IMG/VR virus record: IMGVR_UViG_2588253903_000005
Span: 1-64,000 of that record
DNA length: 64,000 bases
Direction: 5' to 3' (one strand)
Source of the DNA: a virus
Taxonomy: Duplodnaviria; Caudoviricetes
The position numbers and the translations under genes were made by a program. Positions 2,792 through 58,896 of the stretch are shown here, one piece after another. A model generated the notes under the pieces. That model saw nothing but the letters and a program-made list of their open reading frames with translations. It searched no databases and was not told the DNA's origin. The first letter of the stretch is position 1. Every line of letters starts with the position of its first letter.

Positions 2792-3991
2792 ATGTCTGAG
2801 AAACGGAAAGACAATAAAGGACGAATCTTAAAGACAGGGGAGAGCCAGAGAAAAGACCTGATTTATCAGTACCGCTACACGGATATCCGCGGAAAGCGGC
2901 AGACCATTTATTCCTCTGATTTGAAGGAACTGCGGGAAAAGGAGAAGATGATCCAGAAGCAACTTGATGAAGGGATTGACTATGCTGCTGGAGAAGTTAC
3001 CGTTATTTCCCTCTTGGAACGCTATATCAGTTTGAAGCAGGGTGTACGCTACAATACCAAAGTTGGATACAATTTTGTGCTGAATCTGATTAAGAAAGAA
3101 GATTTCGGTTACCGTCAGATAAGAGATATTAAGGTATCGGATGCACAACAGTGGATTATGAAGCTGCATAATGACGGTAAAGGGTACAGCACTATCACAA
3201 GTGTCAGAGGCGTTGTAAAGCCTGCTTTTCAAATGGCATACAATGAGGATATAATCCGCAGGAATCCTTTTGATTTCAAGCTGGTTGATGTTGTTCCCAA
3301 CGATTCACAAAAACGGATTGCCATGACTGAAGAACAGCAGGAACTTTGGATGAGATTTATTCGGGAGGATAAAACTTACTGCAAGTATTATGATGAGTTT
3401 GTTGTCCTGCTGGGAACAGGAATGCGTGTCAGCGAGTTTTGTGGCTTGACAAAAAGTGATCTTGACTTTGAAAGCCGGAAAATCCGTGTAGATCATCAGC
3501 TTGTCCGGGAACGGGGCGGAAAGTATTATGTTGAGAAAACCAAAACCGAATGCGGATGCCGCTTTATCCCTATGACAGAGGAAGTCTATCGGAGTCTGAA
3601 AAAAATCCTTATCCGCCGCAAGAGCTTGAAGACAGAAATGATTGTTGACGGGTACAGCAACTTTCTTCTGTTGGACAAGGATGATAAACCGAAAGTAGCG
3701 TTGCATATCGAAAATGAGATGCGGTGGGCAATGAAGAAATACAAGAAGCTGCATCCGGATAAACCATTGCCACACATCACTCCTCATGTGTTCCGTCATA
3801 CGTTCTGTACCAACATGGCAAACGCAGGCATGGAAATTAAGACCTTACAGTATGTAATGGGACATTCCGATGTAGGTGTTACGCTGAATGTGTATACTCA
3901 TGCCAGCTATGATCGGGCAGCGGAGCAGATGGCGAAAATTTTAGACTTCAAAGAAACTGATATGCAAGGGAAACAGAGAAAATCAGGTTGA
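2792..3991 (+). CDS. int: Tyrosine integrase, Tn916 family
   Basis: MSEKRKDNKGRILKTGESQRKD arm-binding domain; GMRVSE, HVFRHTF, MGHSD, VY catalytic motifs. Confidence 0.95.
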   Translation: MSEKRKDNKGRILKTGESQRKDLIYQYRYTDIRGKRQTIYSSDLKELREKEKMIQKQLDEGIDYAAGEVTVISLLERYISLKQGVRYNTKVGYNFVLNLIKKEDFGYRQIRDIKVSDAQQWIMKLHNDGKGYSTITSVRGVVKPAFQMAYNEDIIRRNPFDFKLVDVVPNDSQKRIAMTEEQQELWMRFIREDKTYCKYYDEFVVLLGTGMRVSEFCGLTKSDLDFESRKIRVDHQLVRERGGKYYVEKTKTECGCRFIPMTEEVYRSLKKILIRRKSLKTEMIVDGYSNFLLLDKDDKPKVALHIENEMRWAMKKYKKLHPDKPLPHITPHVFRHTFCTNMANAGMEIKTLQYVMGHSDVGVTLNVYTHASYDRAAEQMAKILDFKETDMQGKQRKSG

Positions 3992-13487: not shown

Positions 13488-14310
13488 CGTTCAAACCGCA
13501 ACCATGCAGACACCGATTGAAATTGCGTTAGGCATTGACGAAAACGGTATGGCAACAGCTAAGAAACTGTATGAGTTTCTTGAACTTAATCCTAAAAACT
13601 ATTCTCATTGGTGCAAAAGAAACATAACAGAGAATGAATTTGCAGAAGAAAATGTTGATTATTGGGCATTCGTCTTAAATGACGAATGGGGCGGACAGGC
13701 TACAACAGATTATAAATTAACTGCCCACTTTGCAAAGAAATTATCATGCAAAGGCAACGGAGAACGTGCGGAGCAGGCAAGGGAATATTTTTCCACTCTT
13801 GATGATAAAGTCAAAGAGATTGCCATAAACCGCAGTCAGCTTTCCCGAAGCACACAAGCATTGTTCGGTATCATTGAAAGCATGGCAAAGCAGGAGCTAG
13901 AACAGAAACGCCAAGCGGAGCAATTAAACCGTATTGAGCAAAAGCAGGAGGTCATATCTGATACCTTTACCCACACTTCGGATAATGAAGATTTCAAAGC
14001 GTGGGTAAACCGCTGTATTGCCAAGATTGCCGAAAGTCCGAATTATGCGAACGGTTCTGGCAGGTCGGAAAGGTATCAGAATGTCCGTACCGAGAGTTAC
14101 GACAGATTAAGGAAGAAATGGAACTGTAACCTCAATGATAGGGTTGCAAGGGCTAAAGGTCGGGCATTGGAAAACAAACCCAACATTACCAAAAAGGAAC
14201 TCGATTCCATCAACAAGTTATCTGTGATTTCAGAAGATAAGAGCCTTAAACCTGTCTATGAAACAGTCATCAAGGAAATGATGATTTGCTATTGCGTAAA
14301 CATTTCTTGA
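13480..14310 (+). CDS. AntA/AntB-type antirepressor
   Basis: TPIEIALGIDENGMATAKKLYEFLEL...YSHW...EENVDY...DYKLTAHFAKKL. Confidence 0.8.
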   Translation: MNDVQTATMQTPIEIALGIDENGMATAKKLYEFLELNPKNYSHWCKRNITENEFAEENVDYWAFVLNDEWGGQATTDYKLTAHFAKKLSCKGNGERAEQAREYFSTLDDKVKEIAINRSQLSRSTQALFGIIESMAKQELEQKRQAEQLNRIEQKQEVISDTFTHTSDNEDFKAWVNRCIAKIAESPNYANGSGRSERYQNVRTESYDRLRKKWNCNLNDRVARAKGRALENKPNITKKELDSINKLSVISEDKSLKPVYETVIKEMMICYCVNIS

Positions 14311-14336
14311 CGCATTTCTAACTCTCTACATCATTT

Positions 14337-14366
14337 AGGGCGGTAGTGGTCGGCTACTGCCCTTTA
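14337..14366. terminator. Terminator between convergent operons
   Basis: AGGGCGGTAG-TGGTCGG-CTACTGCCCT plus TT. Confidence 0.7.
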
Positions 14367-14388
14367 TTCTGTTTTCAAGGTACGGAAT

Positions 14389-14434
14389 TTGCGTTAGTCG
14401 GATTTGCACCAACTACAAGGCGACTAACACGCAA
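14389..14434 (-). ncRNA. T-loop-containing structured element
   Basis: AGUUGG-UGCAAAU-CCGACU arm plus UUGCG/CGCAA basal stem. Confidence 0.45.
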
Positions 14435-14522
14435 GTTTTAGTGGTAGCCTGCGGTTGCAGGCTTAATCTTCTTCCATTCCCTTCCCTTCAATGCGGCTTC
14501 TGTAACTGTCCAATCGAACCTA

Positions 14523-14648
14523 TCAGAAACCTTTTTTCAGCAATGCTTCTTTGTAGGTTTCCAAAGAATCTGTCATATGGATGTCGCAAAGTTCGATTGT
14601 TTCGTTAAGTTCCACAAAAATTTTTCCTTCTGACTTGTATAATTTCAA
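14523..14648 (-). CDS. Small ORF (41 aa, TTG start), possibly truncated
   Basis: RBS GGAGG; stops just after an A6 run. Confidence 0.35.
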   Translation of the reverse strand: MKLYKSEGKIFVELNETIELCDIHMTDSLETYKEALLKKGF

Positions 14649-14720
14649 AATATCGCCTCCATTTCAAAAATTATAATTCCGTTTCTGGCGCGCGTCAAGG
14701 CGGAAAGGGCGTGTTGACTT

Positions 14721-14999
14721 TTAAATCAGCCCATACTGCTCACAGATATATTCGAGCCATGATGTGTATTCCCTTATCCATTTTTGGGTGGTATTTTTTA
14801 CCATTTTCCCCTTGCTGTTCATCTTTTTAAGTGACACTTCGGAAAATTTAGTCCTCTTTTCGTCTAATTTTTCTATCCTTGCAGATACTCTTACATGGTC
14901 GTTTACCGCCGTATAAATTCCGTTGTTTTTATCTAAATGCAAAATCAACCTCTTTCCGTCATAAACATTTACATTGTTTCCGTTTCTTTTTATTTCCAT
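14721..14999 (-). CDS. Hypothetical protein (early leftward operon)
   Basis: RBS AAAGGA; 92 aa. Confidence 0.7.
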   Translation of the reverse strand: MEIKRNGNNVNVYDGKRLILHLDKNNGIYTAVNDHVRVSARIEKLDEKRTKFSEVSLKKMNSKGKMVKNTTQKWIREYTSWLEYICEQYGLI

Positions 15000-15044
15000 A
15001 TCCTTTTCTTTCTCCCCTTATCCCTGGGGGCTGGGAATTTTGAG

Positions 15045-15100
15045 AACTCCCGCCGGGACTTGCACCCGGCTGACCGCTTGACGGTGGTAGTTATGCGGGT
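15045..15100 (-). ncRNA. Three-way-junction element with UGCAAGU T-loop
   Basis: ACCG-UCAAG-CGGU and GCCGGG-UGCAAGU-CCCGGC arms closed by AACUACC/GGGAGUU. Confidence 0.55.
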
Positions 15101-15318
15101 TAAATGTTAAACATAACGATTTTTCCGTTATCATCGTAGATGTTTCCGCAAGTTCCCATGATAAAATATTTTCTGCCGTTTTCGATTCCCCTAACAGCGA
15201 AATGATACCCTTTTTCTTTTGCTTCTTTTTCGGACAATTCAGAAAAGGTTGTGTTCTCTCCCAATCCGTCATTGATAAAAAATCTTGTGATTTCCTCTGC
15301 ATTGTTAAATTTAGCCAT
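15100..15318 (-). CDS. Hypothetical protein (early leftward operon)
   Basis: Real start MAKFN after AAGGAGG. Confidence 0.7.
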   Translation of the reverse strand: MAKFNNAEEITRFFINDGLGENTTFSELSEKEAKEKGYHFAVRGIENGRKYFIMGTCGNIYDDNGKIVMFNI

Positions 15319-15350
15319 TTTTATATCCTCCTTAAATTTTATTGATAAAT

Positions 15351-15390
15351 GGCAGTCAAGGGGCTTGCACCATTGCGCCGCTGGTCTGCC
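15351..15390 (-). ncRNA. T-loop-containing structured element
   Basis: GGCAG/CUGCC basal stem; CAAUGG-UGCAAGC-CCCUUG arm. Confidence 0.45.
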
Positions 15391-15403
15391 TACCACGCAA
15401 ATT

Positions 15404-15583
15404 TTAACTGCGGGAAAATATTTCGAGAGCAACGGGATCAGCGAAAACATAATCCCCGATCATGCGCCCGTCCTTCCAAATGTTACCCCGGTACTCCCCA
15501 TCGTTGGGATAAAAAGAAATGTCGATTTTGTCGGCATCCTCTTTTTTATCCCCATACCACATATCAATCATAATCTTTGCCAT
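15404..15583 (-). CDS. Hypothetical protein (early leftward operon)
   Basis: Start MAKIM after AAGGAGG, immediately 3' of the twister ribozyme. Confidence 0.7.
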   Translation of the reverse strand: MAKIMIDMWYGDKKEDADKIDISFYPNDGEYRGNIWKDGRMIGDYVFADPVALEIFSRS

Positions 15584-15605
15584 CCTCTTTTCCTCCTTGT
15601 ACTTT

Positions 15606-15654
15606 CTGTCCTCTGCATCTTCCAGGCTTGGAACCGGCTGTGGCTGCATTACAT
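15606..15654 (-). ncRNA. Twister self-cleaving ribozyme (type P1)
   Basis: AUG-U^AA-UGCA-GC-CACA-GC-CGG-UUCC-AAGC-CUGG-AAGA-UGCA-GA-GGA-CAG; P2, P4, T1 (UCC/GGA) and T2 (GC/GC) all pair; P1 only 2 bp. Confidence 0.88.
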
Positions 15655-15671
15655 GGGCGGAACGTGTCCGC

Positions 15672-15959
15672 CTATGCCAAAATCGCCTTTACTGAAGTGT
15701 AAACATAATACCTGTTATGGCTGTGTGTGAGCCAATTTCCATTATTTACGATTGTATTATAGCTGTTTGGGTATTTCAGCTTAAAAACTGTTAAATAATC
15801 GTTCATTTCCTCGTCCGTTGCCTCAAGGCACTTTATAGCGCCCTCGATAATAGCCTTGTTGTCGTTCCAACCGATTTTCCCGCTAAATGTTTCGATTTTG
15901 CACATTTTCTTTTCTGCAAGCAGTTCCTCTAATTTCTTCATCAAATCTTTCTTTGTCAT
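15672..15959 (-). CDS. Hypothetical protein (early leftward operon)
   Basis: Start MTKKD after AGGTGGAAAG. Confidence 0.7.
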   Translation of the reverse strand: MTKKDLMKKLEELLAEKKMCKIETFSGKIGWNDNKAIIEGAIKCLEATDEEMNDYLTVFKLKYPNSYNTIVNNGNWLTHSHNRYYVYTSVKAILA

Positions 15960-16004
15960 ACTTTCCACCTTTTGAACTTTCTTTTTTGTTTCCCTTTCGG
16001 GCAG

Positions 16005-16044
16005 AGCCTGCGGCGGAATCGAACCGCCGTACACCGTTCAGGCT
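16005..16044 (-). ncRNA. T-loop-containing structured element
   Basis: AGCCUG/CAGGCU basal stem; CGGCGG-UUCGAUU-CCGCCG canonical T-arm. Confidence 0.55.
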
Positions 16045-16220
16045 GCTCTTGTTAAATCGCAATGTTCAAACGCCTTGCGACCGAACGTGTGGATTTTATC
16101 AGAAATTTTGTTGCTCCCAAGTAAAACTCTGTATGTCACAATATTTTCGTTTGCTGATAAAATTTCAAAACAAACATTGTTTACATTGCCCTTAAAAATC
16201 ATTCCTTTTTCAATTGTCAT
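16038..16220 (-). CDS. Hypothetical protein (early leftward operon)
   Basis: Start MTIEK after GGAGG, immediately 3' of the pistol ribozyme. Confidence 0.65.
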   Translation of the reverse strand: MTIEKGMIFKGNVNNVCFEILSANENIVTYRVLLGSNKISDKIHTFGRKAFEHCDLTRAA

Positions 16221-16245
16221 AATATTTTCCTCCATTTTTATTTGT

Positions 16246-16311
16246 TCCAACCCCGGCATTTCTGCCGGACGCTCCCAACTTAATGGACTTTTTAGAGCCG
16301 TTGGGACGGCT
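16246..16311 (-). ncRNA. Pistol self-cleaving ribozyme
   Basis: AGCCG-UCCCAA-CGGCU-CUAAAAAG-UCCA-UUAA-GUUGGG-AGCG-UCCGGC-AGAAAU-GCCGGG-G^U-UGGA; P1, pseudoknot, P2, P3 and the GU site are all in canonical order. Confidence 0.92.
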
Positions 16312-16515
16312 TTATATCGCGTCTTGCGCATAAACACCTTCCCAAAGCATTCTAAGATATTCACTTCCATTCCTCTCTTCTATCTTTTTCCGTTCCTGCT
16401 TCCCCCAATACTCAACAGTCGCAAATTTTTCTGTCCTTTTTACGATTTTTACGGTATCTCTGACCTCCCCGCTCAGTTTTGCCTGGTACTCTTTTCCTGC
16501 TTCGAATTTTATCAT
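16312..16515 (-). CDS. Hypothetical protein (first gene of leftward operon)
   Basis: Start MIKFE after AGGAGG. Confidence 0.7.
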   Translation of the reverse strand: MIKFEAGKEYQAKLSGEVRDTVKIVKRTEKFATVEYWGKQERKKIEERNGSEYLRMLWEGVYAQDAI

Positions 16516-16563
16516 ATCCGCGCCCTCCTGTTTGGTTTGTTGTTTGCTTGTTTCTATGCTCTT

Positions 16564-16592
16564 ATTATATATCATGTTATATATAATGTCAA
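16564..16592 (-). promoter_or_regulatory. Consensus sigmaA promoter of leftward operon
   Basis: TTGACA-17-TATAAT on the minus strand. Confidence 0.85.
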
Positions 16593-16674
16593 TAGGGAGT
16601 TTGAAAATATTTATATAATTTTTTATATGATGATTTATATATACATTTATATATGAAAACGCCCAAACGAAAAC

Positions 16675-16703
16675 TTGACAAGATATATAAAATGTTATAT
16701 ATT
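16675..16703 (+). promoter_or_regulatory. Divergent sigmaA promoter
   Basis: TTGACA-17-TATATT; ATATATAA boxes repeated across 16570-16700. Confidence 0.7.
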
Positions 16704-16736
16704 AAAAGAAATAAATCAGAAATGGAGGTTCTAAAA

Positions 16737-16949
16737 ATGGGAAAGACGCCAGAATACACAAAGAAGGCTGTGAATAACTATCGTGATAAGTTTGATTTTA
16801 TACAAGTCAGATTTCCAAAAGGAACAAGGGAAAGATTAGCAGACAAAGGAAATATAAATGATTATATATGCGGTCTTGTGCTGGATGATTTAGGGGAAGA
16901 AGCAGCCGAAAAAGAACAGAAAAAAACTAGCGCAGAATGTCCGTTTTAA
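16737..16949 (+). CDS. RHH (Arc-like) regulator
   Basis: AVNNYRDKFDFIQVRFPKGTRE...NINDYICGLV. Confidence 0.7.
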   Translation: MGKTPEYTKKAVNNYRDKFDFIQVRFPKGTRERLADKGNINDYICGLVLDDLGEEAAEKEQKKTSAECPF

Positions 16950-17300
16950 TTGCAAAAAGTTCTAATTCCCTATTGACAATTTATATAACATGATTTGAAG
17001 CTGTTAGACACCATAGCAAGAGCAAAGGGAGTTGAATAAACCAACTCCCCACACAACAGAACGGGCGGCGTAAAAACCGCCCCAACTGTAAAGCAGATTA
17101 TAGCACATAAGCCGCATGGATTTCAAGGGCGGTTTTTTGATGCAATAATATATCAACAAGAATTAAATACATATTGAATTACAGTAATGCAATATGATTG
17201 ATATAGGTATATAAATACATTAACTAAATAAGTATTGCAATCTGCAACGCAATATTATATAATTTCAGTACATCAATATGCAATAAGGAGGCGTTATATT

Positions 17301-17813
17301 ATGGCAAAAACAGACCAAGAATTATTGGAATCATATAAAGCGAGGATAAAACGGCAAAACAACAGGATAAAAAAGAATTACGACAAGGTAACAGCGGCAC
17401 TTCCAAAGGGCACCGTAGACCGAATCAGGGCATTAGGATTGACGGTAAACGGCGCAATTAACGAAAGCCTTATAGCGTTTTTGGAATGTCTGGAAGAACA
17501 AGACAAAACAGAATCTTCCCAGACCATCCACAACGTCCATGCAAGTTCAAAAACAGAAAAGCCGGAGAAACACACGCCGACACCGACAAAAGCCGAAATT
17601 GGGGCAAATACAACGCCATACCAGGGCGGAAAGGCAGAAGAATCGGGTTCCAACGAGAATAATCCTGTAAAAGCCGGATTTGACGGGCTGAAAGCCTGTG
17701 AATGGAACACGGAAGATCATAGCGGAGTTGTGCCGCATCCGCCAATGGGAACCCCAAATAATGCGATATGGGATTCCAGTATGGGCGAATGGTATGAGCC
17801 GCTGCCCTTTTAA
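17301..17813 (+). CDS. RHH-like N-terminal domain with disordered tail
   Basis: KKNYDKVTAALPKGTVDRIRALGLTVNGAI; RBS AAGGAGG. Confidence 0.65.
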   Translation: MAKTDQELLESYKARIKRQNNRIKKNYDKVTAALPKGTVDRIRALGLTVNGAINESLIAFLECLEEQDKTESSQTIHNVHASSKTEKPEKHTPTPTKAEIGANTTPYQGGKAEESGSNENNPVKAGFDGLKACEWNTEDHSGVVPHPPMGTPNNAIWDSSMGEWYEPLPF

Positions 17814-17869
17814 GGGATCCTGGAACCATAGTTAGCCGCCAGAAATGGCGGTTTTCTTATTCCTAAATT

Positions 17870-18300
17870 TATTCTTGACAAATTCCAGAAGTTGTGTTAT
17901 TTTATATAATCTTTATATCAACTAGATAAATATTATTTAATCTATATTAAGATATATACTGTATATATTATTATTAATCTCTATAAAGTAAAACATAACA
18001 TAGTGTACATTATAAACCATAGAGTATATTATACCAGTAATATATAACGTATATATAGCCATAGTGTATAGTATTAGCCAATACAGTATATATAGCCATA
18101 TATCACAGAGTATATTAATCCAATACAGTAAATCTTTAACCAATACAGTATAACATACACATATGCTGTAGTATATTAAATTATTATAATGCGCGCGGAT
18201 ATATATTATATACAGCTTATAGAATATATGTTCTGTAAATCCATAGTTGACAGATAAATAAATTTATGCTATGGTTTTAATAATTTAACAGTTTTACACA
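17870..18300. repeat. Very AT-rich non-coding region with short repeats
   Basis: CCAATACAGTA x3 (18078, 18120, 18140); TATATAGCCATA x2 (18052, 18089). Confidence 0.7.
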
Positions 18301-23697: not shown

Positions 23698-23715
23698 AAA
23701 TTAAATGAATTTTAT

Positions 23716-24107
23716 CCACTGTTTACCGAAAACCCCAAACTACAATTCATACGTCTTTTGCAGATACAGACATATGTAAAACAATAAAGAAATCTGCAAA
23801 CTTCAATGGACGAAGATAATATGAATTGGTCTTGAAAACCAAATTTGCATAAACAATGTGTCGGCGGTTCGATTCCGTCCAAGTCTTCGGACTTGTAGCT
23901 CAGTCGGGAGAGCGATTGTAAAAACAAAACGCACTGTAAAGATTAAAGAGTAAAGCTCAAATCTTAAAGCTGAAAGGTCAAAGTTTATTTTCTTCAAAGT
24001 TGAAAGAGCAAAGGTAAAAGACAAAAGTTTTACAAAATCCTTGGGAAATGTTTATTCGGGCTAATTGTAATTGCTGATGGGTTTAACACAAGGCTGGTAA
24101 ATGGTGG
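23716..24107 (+). ncRNA. ~390-nt structured ncRNA with permuted tRNA module, anticodon-arm mimic and heptamer array
   Basis: 13-bp 5'/3' helix (23716-23728 with 24095-24107), nested AAACCC/GGGTTT and TACAATT/AATTGTA helices; no coding ORF on +. Confidence 0.85.
23937..24029 (+). repeat. 12 tandem heptamers, consensus NAAAGNN (7 + 5, split by a 9-nt U-rich linker)
   Basis: TAAAGAT TAAAGAG TAAAGCT CAAATCT TAAAGCT GAAAGGT CAAAGTT [TATTTTCTT] CAAAGTT GAAAGAG CAAAGGT AAAAGAC AAAAGTT. Confidence 0.9.
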
Positions 24108-24249: not shown

Positions 24250-24319
24250 TTATGGGGATGGTAAAGTCTATGGGTTGATTCCAAAAATAAACAAACTTTA
24301 CAAAAAGCATTCCCATTAT

Positions 24320-24411
24320 GCCGACGTACCCAAACGGTTATAAGGGCGCAGTCTTGAAAACTGATGTGCCATGGAGAACATGGTCTGTGGGTTCAAATCC
24401 TACCGTCGGCG
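24320..24411 (+). tRNA. tRNA-Ser(UGA)
   Basis: GCCGACG/CGTCGGC acceptor, CTTGAAA loop, long variable arm, GGTTCAAATCC. Confidence 0.92.
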
Positions 24412-24756
24412 TTTAGTGTCGAACATTCGTACCATTTGGCACTCCTTTCACCCCGTAGCGGAATGCTGTTAAGAGCCTTCGCAAGGCTTGCGGGGATTCG
24501 TCAAGGAAAAGACATTAAAACCCGCTTGCCAGAGCGTATAAGTGGCGATACTAAAGCCCGGCTACTGCTTGAGGGCAATATAAAAAAGAGCAGCGTGTAG
24601 ATTGGCGGTAAGACGATGCGAATCTCAAATAACCGCATTCTGGATGATGCCCACGTCATTGTATAATTGGTGATGCATACTAGTTTGGACAGAATCCGAT
24701 TGTCAGTAAAGACATGCAAAATCCTATGCAGTCCTCATAGACATAAATTGGACGGT

Positions 24757-24938
24757 GTTGCGTGGCGGAATAGATAAACGCTAAAGTGTAGCTCTTATAG
24801 ATTGGTTGGCATTACAAGGTGTAGCCGTAAAAGAACAATTACTGTATAACAAGTCATCTCCGAGCAGAGGGCGAATGAGCCACGGAAAGGCAGAAATGCA
24901 AACTCCAATCATGTGTGGTGCAAATCCACACCGCAACA
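24757..24938 (+). ncRNA. tRNA-like RNA with ~130-nt insert in the anticodon arm
   Basis: GTTGCG/CGCAAC acceptor, TGGCGGAATAGATAAACGC D-arm, TGTGG-TGCAAAT-CCACA T-arm, GATTGG/CCAATC closing the insert. Confidence 0.7.
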
Positions 24939-25431: not shown

Positions 25432-25701
25432 CGATCTAAAATCAATTTTAAGCGATTTTAACCCAACGCCTTAAATTTCCTCAATGAAACATAAAAGAGG
25501 GCGATTTGAGGCAAATAGGAGCGTTAGAGAGGTATTTCTGCTAAAAGCATACACCGTTGTTCAAGTCAACGGGGCAGATTTGGCGGTAACTTCGGAAATC
25601 GCTACATAAAATCCAACATGAGCGGACAAAAGTGAGAACAAAAACGCTTGAGGTATAAAAGTGAGTATTGCGTATTCTCACAAAGCAGTATTCGCTTTTA
25701 A

Positions 25702-25775: not shown

Positions 25776-25848
25776 AACAACGGGATAGCCCGACGGGGCG
25801 AAAAGCAAAACCGTGATTGCCTGTCCGTTGTTTCAACTAATATCACGG
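25776..25848 (+). ncRNA. Candidate pseudoknotted RNA
   Basis: Long stem 25776-25788/25821-25832; loop CCGTGAT complementary to ATCACGG at 25842. Confidence 0.45.
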
Positions 25849-25867: not shown

Positions 25868-26470
25868 ATGAAAATGGATAAATTGTATCAATCATACGTT
25901 TTGACAGACGATAAAGAACCGTTTAGGTTTGAATTGAAAGAAATTACAGTGAAATCAATTTCTGAAAATGGGACAATAGAAACAAAATATCCATGTTTTT
26001 ATGGTGTAATGAAATGTACAAACCACATAAATGGTTCGGGAGAAATTAAAACAGATAAGGAATATTCTTCTGGACATAGCTATGCATATTATTCGATAAG
26101 CTATGAAAAATGTATGGAGTATCTTGCGAATAAAAGACAGGAACTATTTCAAAAATATCAAAAAATGTCGGAAGAAGTAAGCACATTTTATAAAAAGATA
26201 ATGGAAAGTGAAATAAAGAATCACGTAAATAACGCGACTGTTAAAAAATACTCTTTGTGGATGGAGGGATATTCTGCAACCGGACAAAGTTCAACAGCGG
26301 AATTTTTAGGAGTATTTGACGGAGTTTCGTTTAATGACGCTTGCGATAATTGGTCTAAAACTATTAAACAACCAGAATATTATAAGCCCGGAACCGATGA
26401 ACACAGACCGAGTTATTGGGCGTGTAAAATTTTTGACAATGAAATAGACGCAAGAAAATCATTTGGTTAA
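25868..26470 (+). CDS. Hypothetical protein
   Basis: 200 aa ORF. Confidence 0.7.
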   Translation: MKMDKLYQSYVLTDDKEPFRFELKEITVKSISENGTIETKYPCFYGVMKCTNHINGSGEIKTDKEYSSGHSYAYYSISYEKCMEYLANKRQELFQKYQKMSEEVSTFYKKIMESEIKNHVNNATVKKYSLWMEGYSATGQSSTAEFLGVFDGVSFNDACDNWSKTIKQPEYYKPGTDEHRPSYWACKIFDNEIDARKSFG

Positions 26471-26487: not shown

Positions 26488-26538
26488 CAATAGGCTAGGG
26501 TAGCTCCCAAAAAGCGTCCTCCAACGCCTGCCTATTGT
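26488..26538 (+). promoter_or_regulatory. Three-way-junction leader upstream of the replication initiator
   Basis: CAATAGGC/GCCTATTG, GGG-TAGCT-CCC and GCGT-CCTCCA-ACGC helices. Confidence 0.45.
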
Positions 26539-26583
26539 TTTTATAAATTTGGAGGATTAGAAAAATGGATTGGAGGTCATTTT

Positions 26584-33398: not shown

Positions 33399-34601
33399 AT
33401 GAGTGATTTAAAAATATTTACAGAAAACATAGAACCGCAGGCATTAAATCAGATTTACACGCTGATTAAGCAACCGGCATTTGCGGATTGCAAAGTGCGT
33501 ATCATGCCTGACGTACACGCCGGAGCTGGATGTGTTATCGGTTTTACTGCTGATTTGGGAGATAAGGTAATTCCAAACATCGTCGGAGTGGATATTGGCT
33601 GCGGCATGGAAACTGTAGAACTTGGCAACACAGACATAGACCTTGCAAAACTCGACGAGGTAATCAGAAAATATGTTCCGAATGGCAGAAATGTGCATGA
33701 AACAGAAGATAACTTTTCGGAAATCATCATCAATCAGCTTTATTGCGAAGACCGCCTAAAAAACGTGGATTGGTTGAAAAGAAGCTGCGGTACGCTTGGC
33801 GGAGGAAATCATTTTTGCGAAGTGGACATTGACGATGACGGAAATAAATACCTTGTCATTCATTCGGGAAGTCGGAACATTGGAAAGCAGGTTGCGGAAA
33901 TTTATCAGCAGATGGCGATTGACGATTTAAGCGGAGCGAACAGCCTTGAAGAAGAAACAAAGAAACTGATTGAAGATTACAAACGGACAGGCAGACACAA
34001 GGATATTCAGAGAGGGATTGCGGAGTTAAAACGGAAATTTCAGCCGAAAATTAGTGTGCCAAAAGAATTATCCTATCTGACAGGCGAACACAGGGAAATG
34101 TATCTGCACGACATGAAGTTGTGTCAGAAATTCGCAAGTGAAAATAGATACAGGATTGCAAAAGAAATATCTTATGGCATGGGCTGGGATATAGATAGAT
34201 TTTCAAATGGATTTGAAACAATCCACAACTACATTGAGCATGACACAAACATCGTCCGCAAGGGCGCAATATCGGCGAAAGAGGGCGAAACAGTCCTAAT
34301 TCCTATCAATATGCGTGACGGCTGTATTATCGGCAGGGGAAAAGGTAATGCAGACTGGAATTATTCAGCGCCGCATGGGGCAGGACGGATAATGAGCCGT
34401 AGCAAAGCAAAAGAAACGGTATCGCTGGAAGAATTTGAACAGTCCATGCAAGGAATTTATACAACATCTGTTAATCGGTCAACGATTGATGAAAGCCCTA
34501 TGGCATACAAGCCGATTGAGGAAATTGTAGCGAATATACAAGATACGGTTGAAATCATGAAGATTATCAAGCCGATTTATAATTTTAAGGCGAGTGAGTG
34601 A
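33399..34601 (+). CDS. rtcB: RNA ligase RtcB
   Basis: MPDVHAG, VGVDIGCG, GTLGGGNHF, HSGSR, HN, RKGA, HGAGR, DESPMAYK. Confidence 0.97.
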   Translation: MSDLKIFTENIEPQALNQIYTLIKQPAFADCKVRIMPDVHAGAGCVIGFTADLGDKVIPNIVGVDIGCGMETVELGNTDIDLAKLDEVIRKYVPNGRNVHETEDNFSEIIINQLYCEDRLKNVDWLKRSCGTLGGGNHFCEVDIDDDGNKYLVIHSGSRNIGKQVAEIYQQMAIDDLSGANSLEEETKKLIEDYKRTGRHKDIQRGIAELKRKFQPKISVPKELSYLTGEHREMYLHDMKLCQKFASENRYRIAKEISYGMGWDIDRFSNGFETIHNYIEHDTNIVRKGAISAKEGETVLIPINMRDGCIIGRGKGNADWNYSAPHGAGRIMSRSKAKETVSLEEFEQSMQGIYTTSVNRSTIDESPMAYKPIEEIVANIQDTVEIMKIIKPIYNFKASE

Positions 34602-50767: not shown

Positions 50768-50805
50768 CAAGGACAGCATGGGTTCAAATCCTGCTGTCTT
50801 TTTCT
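50768..50805 (+). terminator. Intrinsic terminator
   Basis: AAGGACAGCA...TGCTGTCTT plus T run. Confidence 0.65.
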
Positions 50806-58680: not shown

Positions 58681-58896
58681 TAGACAGGAGGATTCTTTCC
58701 ATACCTTTAATGAAAATTGGTGTATGGAATTTAGTTTATTATAAAGAAAAATACAGAAGAGCTGGCATACCTAACTATGAAGAAAAGCTTGTTAATGTTG
58801 GTTACATCTGGGGATAGGCTGACGAGCCGAAAAGTACAAGCCTTAGTACCTGCCCCGGTTTGACATAAGGCAGTTTGCGGAAAGGCGGTAAAGAGC

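Follow-up and report, generated by a model that had tools for sequence, protein, structure and literature searches.

The window analysed here is the first 64 kb (positions 1 to 64,000) of the 75,652-nt phage record IMGVR_UViG_2588253903_000005 in IMG/VR; its phage identity follows from matches to terminase, portal, serine recombinase/integrase and anti-repressor proteins, and a replication-initiator gene is present as well. We investigated an operon of small genes on the minus strand, designated A to G, that is read leftward from promoter P_L. In the order of transcription it comprises gene A, a pistol ribozyme, gene B, a tRNA-like minihelix with a GAAA-capped hairpin, gene C, a hairpin flush with a twister-like element, gene D, a second minihelix, gene E, a third minihelix, gene F, a promoter-like site, gene G and a fourth T-loop hairpin, so that an RNA module lies in five of the six gene junctions (pistol, minihelix, twister-like, minihelix, minihelix). 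An initial annotation of the sequence had proposed that the pistol and twister ribozymes excise a 600-nt two-gene RNA that the phage RtcB could circularise.

The operon and its RNA modules

The pistol ribozyme scores above the gathering threshold of its Rfam family (Table 1) and begins one nucleotide past the stop codon of gene A. Stems P1, P2 and P3 are all paired in the covariance-model alignment, and the pseudoknot between the P1 loop (UCCCAAC) and GUUGGGA (16279-16273) is complementary at seven of seven positions; the pistol of a relative (locus L043) carries a fully compensatory version, UUGCGGC/GCCGCAA, which is also paired 7/7. The published cleavage site of pistol is the junction between P2 and P3 (PMC4604425). 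This two-nucleotide junction is here G16251-U16250, where the cut is predicted, and the downstream product would therefore start with a 5'-OH at U16250.

The element that follows gene C surfaced with relaxed Rfam thresholds, and we label it twister-like, or a probable twister, since its score is below the gathering threshold and stem P3 is absent, with 16 model positions deleted. The twister core is retained: the UAA of the cut site, GCC, GAGG and the loop region GGUxCCAAGCC are all there, as are stem P2 (UGCA/UGCA) and stem P4 (CCG/UGG), which includes one G-U pair in this phage whereas the P4 of L056 consists of Watson-Crick pairs throughout. Where the consensus reads CCC...GGG the element has UCC...GGA, a C-to-U change in the loop together with a G-to-A change in GAGGG; in the pairing scheme of the crystal structures the two would presumably still pair as the T1 pseudoknot, formed by the P4 loop with the strand that follows P2. 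P1 has two standard pairs here (UG/CA) and three in L055 and L056 (CUG/CAG), where matching elements follow gene C with scores of 40.8 and 46.9 bits, respectively. The cut is predicted at U15651/A15650, the U-A step of the conserved UAA motif, and the element is probably active. For both ribozymes the cuts predicted from the Rfam alignments coincide exactly with those of the initial annotation, which had placed the pistol cut at 16250 and the twister cut at 15651; the stretch between them (16250-15651) is exactly 600 nt, as it had stated, and holds two open reading frames (ORFs), 16220-16038 and 15959-15672, both preceded by a Shine-Dalgarno sequence.

The remaining modules, which the initial annotation does not mention, are tRNA-like minihelices, in which an acceptor stem of 6-7 bp is stacked on a T stem of 5-6 bp with a 7-nt loop of T-loop consensus. 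The stems covary (AGCCUG/CAGGCU, AGCAAG/CUUGCU and GCUUGC/GCAAGC, with T stems GGCGG, CGGGG and GCUGG). A descriptor scan with a Markov control was used instead of a covariance model, and the strict descriptor gave four matches in the genome against 0.27 expected in Markov-simulated sequence, one of the four being part of a genuine tRNA-Ser gene (24319-24412). A relaxed descriptor allowing one mismatch was dropped because it returned many obvious false positives. With MAFFT the T arm and the 3' strand could be aligned; the 5' acceptor strands did not fall into register because the linker varies in length. A small hairpin lies 2-4 nt past each minihelix, and no minihelix encodes CCA. In L056 the minihelix 1 element recurs ahead of gene C, where a different gene precedes it, and Rfam returned a weak match to mascRNA (RF01684, 26.7 bits) for one minihelix of the L052-54 group. 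We considered minihelix 1 as the remnant of a tRNA gene at an attachment site (attP) and rejected this as the principal interpretation, since the element has a complementary 5' acceptor strand that covaries from lineage to lineage. From the known substrate requirements of RNase P and RNase Z, the minihelices would most likely be cut by host tRNA-processing enzymes, and a cut by RNase Z after the discriminator base fits best, given that CCA is encoded by none of them.

Table 1. Positions of the operon features and of the phage rtcB gene in the window
Feature	Position	Strand	Description
Promoter P_L	16564..16592	-	TTGACA-17-TATAAT, 12/12 matches; transcription start ~16557
Gene A (67 aa)	16312..16515	-	start taken as the ATG behind ribosome-binding site AGGAGGG; without Pfam or PHROG matches
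Pistol ribozyme (RF02679)	16246..16311	-	54.4 bits, gathering score 34.5; E 3.8e-7 window-wide
Gene B (60 aa)	16038..16220	-	function unassigned; Shine-Dalgarno present
Minihelix 1	16005..16044	-	acceptor AGCCUG/CAGGCU, 10-nt linker, T arm GGCGG-UUCGAUU-CCGCC; overlaps gene B stop codon
Small GAAA-capped hairpin CCCGAAAGGG	15992..16001	-	3 nt past minihelix 1; equivalent after relatives' minihelices
Gene C (95 aa)	15672..15959	-	Shine-Dalgarno present; member of a large small-protein phage/prophage family
Stem-loop	15651..15677	-	inner GGCGGA/UCCGCC, outer GCAU/AUGU; ends flush with the predicted twister cut
Twister-like ribozyme, type P1 (RF03160)	15605..15655	-	40 bits, below gathering score 67.2; E 5.9e-7 in a 1.4-kb scan, 2.7e-5 window-wide
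Gene D (59 aa)	15404..15583	-	ribosome-binding site ~20 nt past the twister body; homologue after twister in L055
Minihelix 2	15351..15390	-	GGCAG...CAAUGG-UGCAAGC-CCCUUG...CUGCC; same element directly after gene C in L049
Gene E (72 aa)	15100..15318	-	
Minihelix 3	15045..15092	-	AACUACC...GCCGGG-UGCAAGU-CCCGGC-GGGAGUU
Gene F (92 aa)	14721..14999	-	
Internal promoter-like site	14670..14698	-	TTGACG-17-TATAAT, 11/12 matches; the sole junction without an RNA module
Minihelix 4 or long hairpin	14389..14434	-	GGUGCAAAUCC loop; near operon 3' end; fold ambiguous
rtcB (400 aa)	33399..34601	+	just upstream of terminase and portal genes

A longer ORF for gene A, from 16575, would overlap P_L, and in relatives the counterpart homologous to the P_L region is the promoter region immediately ahead of gene C. 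A Pfam search with genes A to F gave zero matches and PHROG gave a single weak one, of gene F to a family of unknown function (E 0.001). No relatives of gene B were found in IMG/VR, and blastn of positions 14000-18000 against an annotated phage collection returned no match.

Further T-loop elements resembling the minihelices are found on the plus strand at 25537-25578, 24900-24935 and 50768-50800; of these, one lies shortly ahead of tRNA-Cys and satisfies the strict descriptor, another carries the GGUGCAAAUCC loop, and the remaining one, a GGGUUCAAAUCC hairpin followed by a U tail, immediately precedes a 2316-aa gene. The same strand carries three int-alpA RNA matches above the gathering score (25778-25848, 26488-26555 and 58807-58871), two of which flank the gene at 25868-26470.

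The flanks of gene C in related phages

The comparison around gene C is decisive for the role of the modules. The gene belongs to a family of 334 clusters at 90% identity, all of them unnamed, and one of its relatives comes from an Eubacteriales genome. In IMG/VR an alignment-based search found the same 19 loci as a single-sequence search; wider sampling was obtained from a protein database and the encoding contigs, and about ten lineages were examined (Table 2). Family members are ~90-95 aa long, share the invariant residues Cys44, Asp49, His79 and Asn82-Arg83, and are almost always bracketed by RNA cleavage modules. Pfam and PHROG returned no matches for gene C. Its AlphaFold2 model is confident (predicted local distance difference test, pLDDT, 94.6) and consists of five helices and a small hairpin, for which Foldseek found nothing at E 0.001 or better in PDB or BFVD, and the best VIA-align Z of 4.3 over 57 residues is uninformative for a helical protein.

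Table 2. Elements on the two sides of gene C in relatives
Loci	Gene C identity	Upstream	Downstream
L056	91%	same minihelix as minihelix 1, behind a different gene	twister
L055	87%	promoter, another gene, 3' half of a pistol only (about 343-385)	twister
L042-46	86%	pistol directly adjoining (2900-2965 in L042/L044)	same flush hairpin and first ten twister nucleotides, core missing (3288-3330 in L042)
L049	77%	promoter	copy of minihelix 2
L050/51	75%	weak type II hammerhead	minihelix (L051; the L050 sequence stops just after gene C)
L002/3	74%	none recognised	minihelix
L004-L020 (one clade)	~52%	hammerhead in 6 loci, promoter in 9; hammerhead two genes upstream in L013; in L007 just an uncharacterised hairpin	type II hammerhead from the stop codon, 17/17
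L052-54	42-44%	hammerhead	minihelix, one with a weak mascRNA match

Inspection of these flanks reveals that the slot after the gene C stop codon is filled by a twister (this phage, L055 and L056), a type II hammerhead (L004-L020) or a minihelix (L002/3, L049, L051, L052 and L053/54), and that ahead of the gene there is a pistol, hammerhead or minihelix, or else a plain promoter. A module of predicted cleavage type is conserved at the boundaries of gene C, above all just past its stop codon; what is conserved across the relatives is no particular ribozyme, no pair of ribozymes and no RtcB-compatible end chemistry. The interchangeability of the modules suggests that cleavage at the boundary has been selected, rather than a particular ribozyme, pair or end chemistry, and this speaks for message processing and insulation rather than for the formation of a circular RNA.

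Several of the relatives' ribozymes are not intact, and recombination breakpoints fall inside them, as seen in a chimeric pistol, a half pistol and a ten-nucleotide twister remnant. The chimera is the pistol of L042/L044, whose pseudoknot pairs at three of seven positions only. Many type II hammerheads of the gene C family carry CCGAUGA instead of the canonical CUGAUGA core (U4 changed), including those of L004, L011, L015, L016 and L018-L020 (about 3320-3335) and the upstream ones of L052 and L053, and from this change they may be slow or inactive. The pistol/gene C operon of L042-L047 (contigs carrying P0094) diverges from an HTH_26 repressor gene that adjoins a large serine recombinase, and the arrangement resembles that controlling a small integrated element or prophage.

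Proposed message processing and the competing explanations

In light of the observed motifs, their positions, their interchangeability among relatives and the covariation of their base pairs, we propose that the modules cut a polycistronic early message into separately stabilised single-gene mRNAs, a reading to which we assign a probability of about 0.65. A leftward early transcript starting from P_L (~16557) would carry the small genes split by interchangeable RNA-cleavage modules. Cleavage by the pistol after gene A would leave the folded ribozyme at the 3' end of the gene A message, and the gene B message would begin with a 5'-OH 30 nt ahead of its start codon. The twister would cut 21 nt past the gene C stop, so that the gene C message would end in the flush hairpin with a 2',3'-cyclic phosphate and the gene D message would carry a 5'-OH and the compact twister fold at its start. 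The minihelices, as likely RNase Z substrates, would serve the same purpose at the remaining junctions, and if RNase Z cuts past the discriminator base the small hairpin that follows a minihelix would be placed at the new 5' end. The net result would be single-gene messages with protected ends, in which the stability and translation of each gene are insulated from those of its neighbours. Cleavage in vivo and the enzymes acting on the minihelices are what the motifs would predict, and the stabilising effect would follow from general knowledge of bacterial mRNA decay. Processing of polycistronic messages by bacterial ribozymes has been suggested but is unproven (PMC6765202).

Some of the data weigh against this proposal. 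The twister-like element is below threshold and its P1 would have only two base pairs in this phage, and from the truncated and chimeric ribozymes in relatives it is plain that some copies are dispensable. The 17 hammerhead loci form one close clade, so that the comparison amounts to about ten independent lineages and not about thirty. Finally, were minihelix 1 cut by RNase P rather than RNase Z, the stop codon of gene B would be stripped from its message.

The circular RNA of the initial annotation, in which the pistol and twister pair excise the 600-nt RNA and the phage RtcB joins its ends into an exonuclease-resistant two-gene mRNA, would be a natural bacterial counterpart of the engineered ribozyme/RtcB circular RNA systems. 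Both cuts are predicted on one transcript, each of the two ORFs has its own ribosome-binding site, and the more distant lineage L013 also has the order ribozyme, two genes, ribozyme; the rtcB gene that the annotation had placed at 33399 is likewise present (Pfam 8.3e-60; PHROG 1075, 1.3e-130), and RtcB joins both end chemistries, 5'-OH and 2',3'-cyclic phosphate (PMC8782182). The ends of the fragment, however, show no particular complementarity and nothing like a ligation stem: the best duplex between them is -8.8 kcal/mol, a value equalled or bettered by 32% of random pairs of 30-nt windows from the same transcript, 0.69 end-to-end pairs are expected, and the fold of minimum energy leaves the initial 31 nt unpaired, with the 3' end held in a local hairpin. 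Minihelix 1 also sits inside the fragment, and if it is cut by RNase P or RNase Z neither sub-fragment would have both of the ends that RtcB requires. Among the closest relatives (gene C 86-91% identical) the pair is broken, L055 having a truncated pistol with an intact-looking twister and L042-46 a pistol with a truncated twister. In 9 of the 17 loci of the L004-L020 clade and in L049 a promoter lies directly upstream of gene C, which would give a 5'-triphosphate end, and the minihelices on the 3' side in several lineages would leave a 3'-OH if cut by RNase P or RNase Z.

The co-occurrence of paired ribozymes and rtcB in related phages, offered by the initial annotation as a check, speaks the same way. 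RtcB is encoded in one of the 15 related phage records, in one of the eight that are at least 90% complete and in one of the seven in which gene C or its block is flanked by ribozymes left and right; most relatives, unlike this phage, are without it, and a host RtcB may be present. The phage gene lies 17 kb from the operon, on the opposite strand and beside the packaging genes. Circular products of the prophage hammerhead clusters were sought and none was detected (PMC3088659), and our literature search returned no paper showing circular mRNAs from phage ribozyme pairs. Taken together, we regard excision by the ribozyme pair followed by joining through the phage RtcB as very unlikely, and it is most improbable that this RtcB-encoding phage circularises the pistol-to-twister RNA, in whole or in part, to give a translatable mRNA. 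What stands of the initial interpretation is the ribozyme-programmed segmentation of the mRNA, which the anatomy of the operon and the module swaps among relatives support, whereas the pistol/twister/RtcB circular mRNA draws no support from end-pairing, conservation or co-occurrence.

Most simply, RtcB would have a separate function, such as the repair of tRNAs or of other RNAs with the same end chemistry. Some bacteria encode Y-like RNAs beside rtcB, which raises the possibility that the phage RtcB serves RNAs of that kind, or tRNA repair, and not the ribozymes. Inside the phage tRNA cluster, at 23715-23917, the plus strand holds a RAGATH-27 RNA (92.1 bits, above threshold) followed by a partial match to YrlA, a Y RNA-like tRNA mimic (23855-23917, 36.3 bits, below threshold).

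Two further explanations were weighed. The elements could mainly mark the borders of exchangeable gene modules, as recombination linkers or passengers of mobile cassettes, with cleavage of little consequence for expression. That gene C is found with many different neighbours fits this account, as do the breakpoints inside elements (L055 has only the 3' half of the pistol and L042-46 only the first part of the twister) and the chimeric L042/L044 pistol, which pairs at 3/7 positions as opposed to 7/7, with different sequences, in this phage and L043. However, element classes with no relationship to each other fill one and the same slot, and homology-driven exchange gives no account of this. Compensatory changes have preserved catalytic cores and stems (the pistol pseudoknot, the minihelix stems and the twister UCC/GGA in its presumed T1 pairing), and the elements are precisely placed relative to stop codons, ribosome-binding sites and capping hairpins. 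We consider this account unlikely as the main explanation; as a secondary reading, the elements may double as recombination boundaries of modules, in keeping with the truncated and chimeric copies. It is also quite unlikely, in our estimate, that conditional cleavage tunes the ratio of early proteins in the lysis/lysogeny decision. The operon diverges from a regulatory region, its equivalent in L042-46 diverges from a helix-turn-helix (HTH) repressor gene beside a serine recombinase, weak variants exist (the 2-bp twister P1 here and the CCGAUGA hammerhead cores in relatives), and regulated cleavage has been suggested for phage hammerheads (PMC3088659), but no ligand-binding or switch element is evident beside either ribozyme.

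Comparison with known systems

The layout of phage genes flanked by ribozymes has been known since 2011, and there is no new mechanism here. Perreault et al. (2011) described prophage genes flanked by ribozymes and read the arrangement as processing into single-gene mRNAs, raising spliced or circular products as the alternative (PMC3088659). The same single-gene mRNA reading for ribozymes that flank phage genes is given in section 13 of PMC6765202, and the association of ribozymes with genes was extended to twister and pistol in later work that PMC4604425 and PMC6765202 cite. Thousands of self-cleaving ribozymes occur in phages and their biological role is formally unknown (PMC6765202). To the known layout our analysis adds that tRNA-like minihelices and three classes of ribozyme are interchangeable around one gene family, which provides, from a single small gene family, a clean comparative argument on the role of self-cleaving ribozymes in phages. 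The operon is also a compact test bed, with two ribozyme classes and four minihelices within 2.2 kb.

The clusters of the Perreault type are the closest likeness, as there too same-strand ribozymes bracket one or two small phage genes with no assigned function and processing into gene-length mRNAs has been proposed. Two self-cleaving ribozymes on the same strand, the pistol and the probable twister, bracket two phage genes in the present operon, and pistol itself was discovered near ribozyme-associated phage genes of this kind. The difference is that two distinct classes bracket the block here and that they share the operon with tRNA-like minihelices, which fill the same slots in relatives.

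The likeness to the Tornado system, which reportedly achieves circular-RNA expression with twister ribozymes and cellular RtcB (Litke and Jaffrey, 2019), lies in an upstream ribozyme that would leave a 5'-OH and a downstream one that would leave a 2',3'-cyclic phosphate on one RNA, together with the presence of an RtcB gene. Tornado, however, depends on engineered complementary end stems, which the phage fragment does not have, and the ribozyme pair and RtcB are not conserved together in the phage relatives. Synthetic insulators of the RiboJ type likewise place a self-cleaving ribozyme and a hairpin after the promoter or preceding gene and before the ribosome-binding site, and so give the message downstream a defined, protected 5' end; the phage elements differ from them in that they occur naturally, belong to several classes and follow one another along an operon.

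For the minihelices, the nearest parallels are tRNA punctuation, the t-elements of plant mitochondria and the mascRNA of MALAT1, all of them tRNA-like signals for processing by RNase P and RNase Z, and the resemblance consists in mimics of the acceptor stem and T arm placed between coding regions. Unlike these, the putative signals described here belong to a bacterial phage, have neither a D arm nor an anticodon arm and occur alongside self-cleaving ribozymes.

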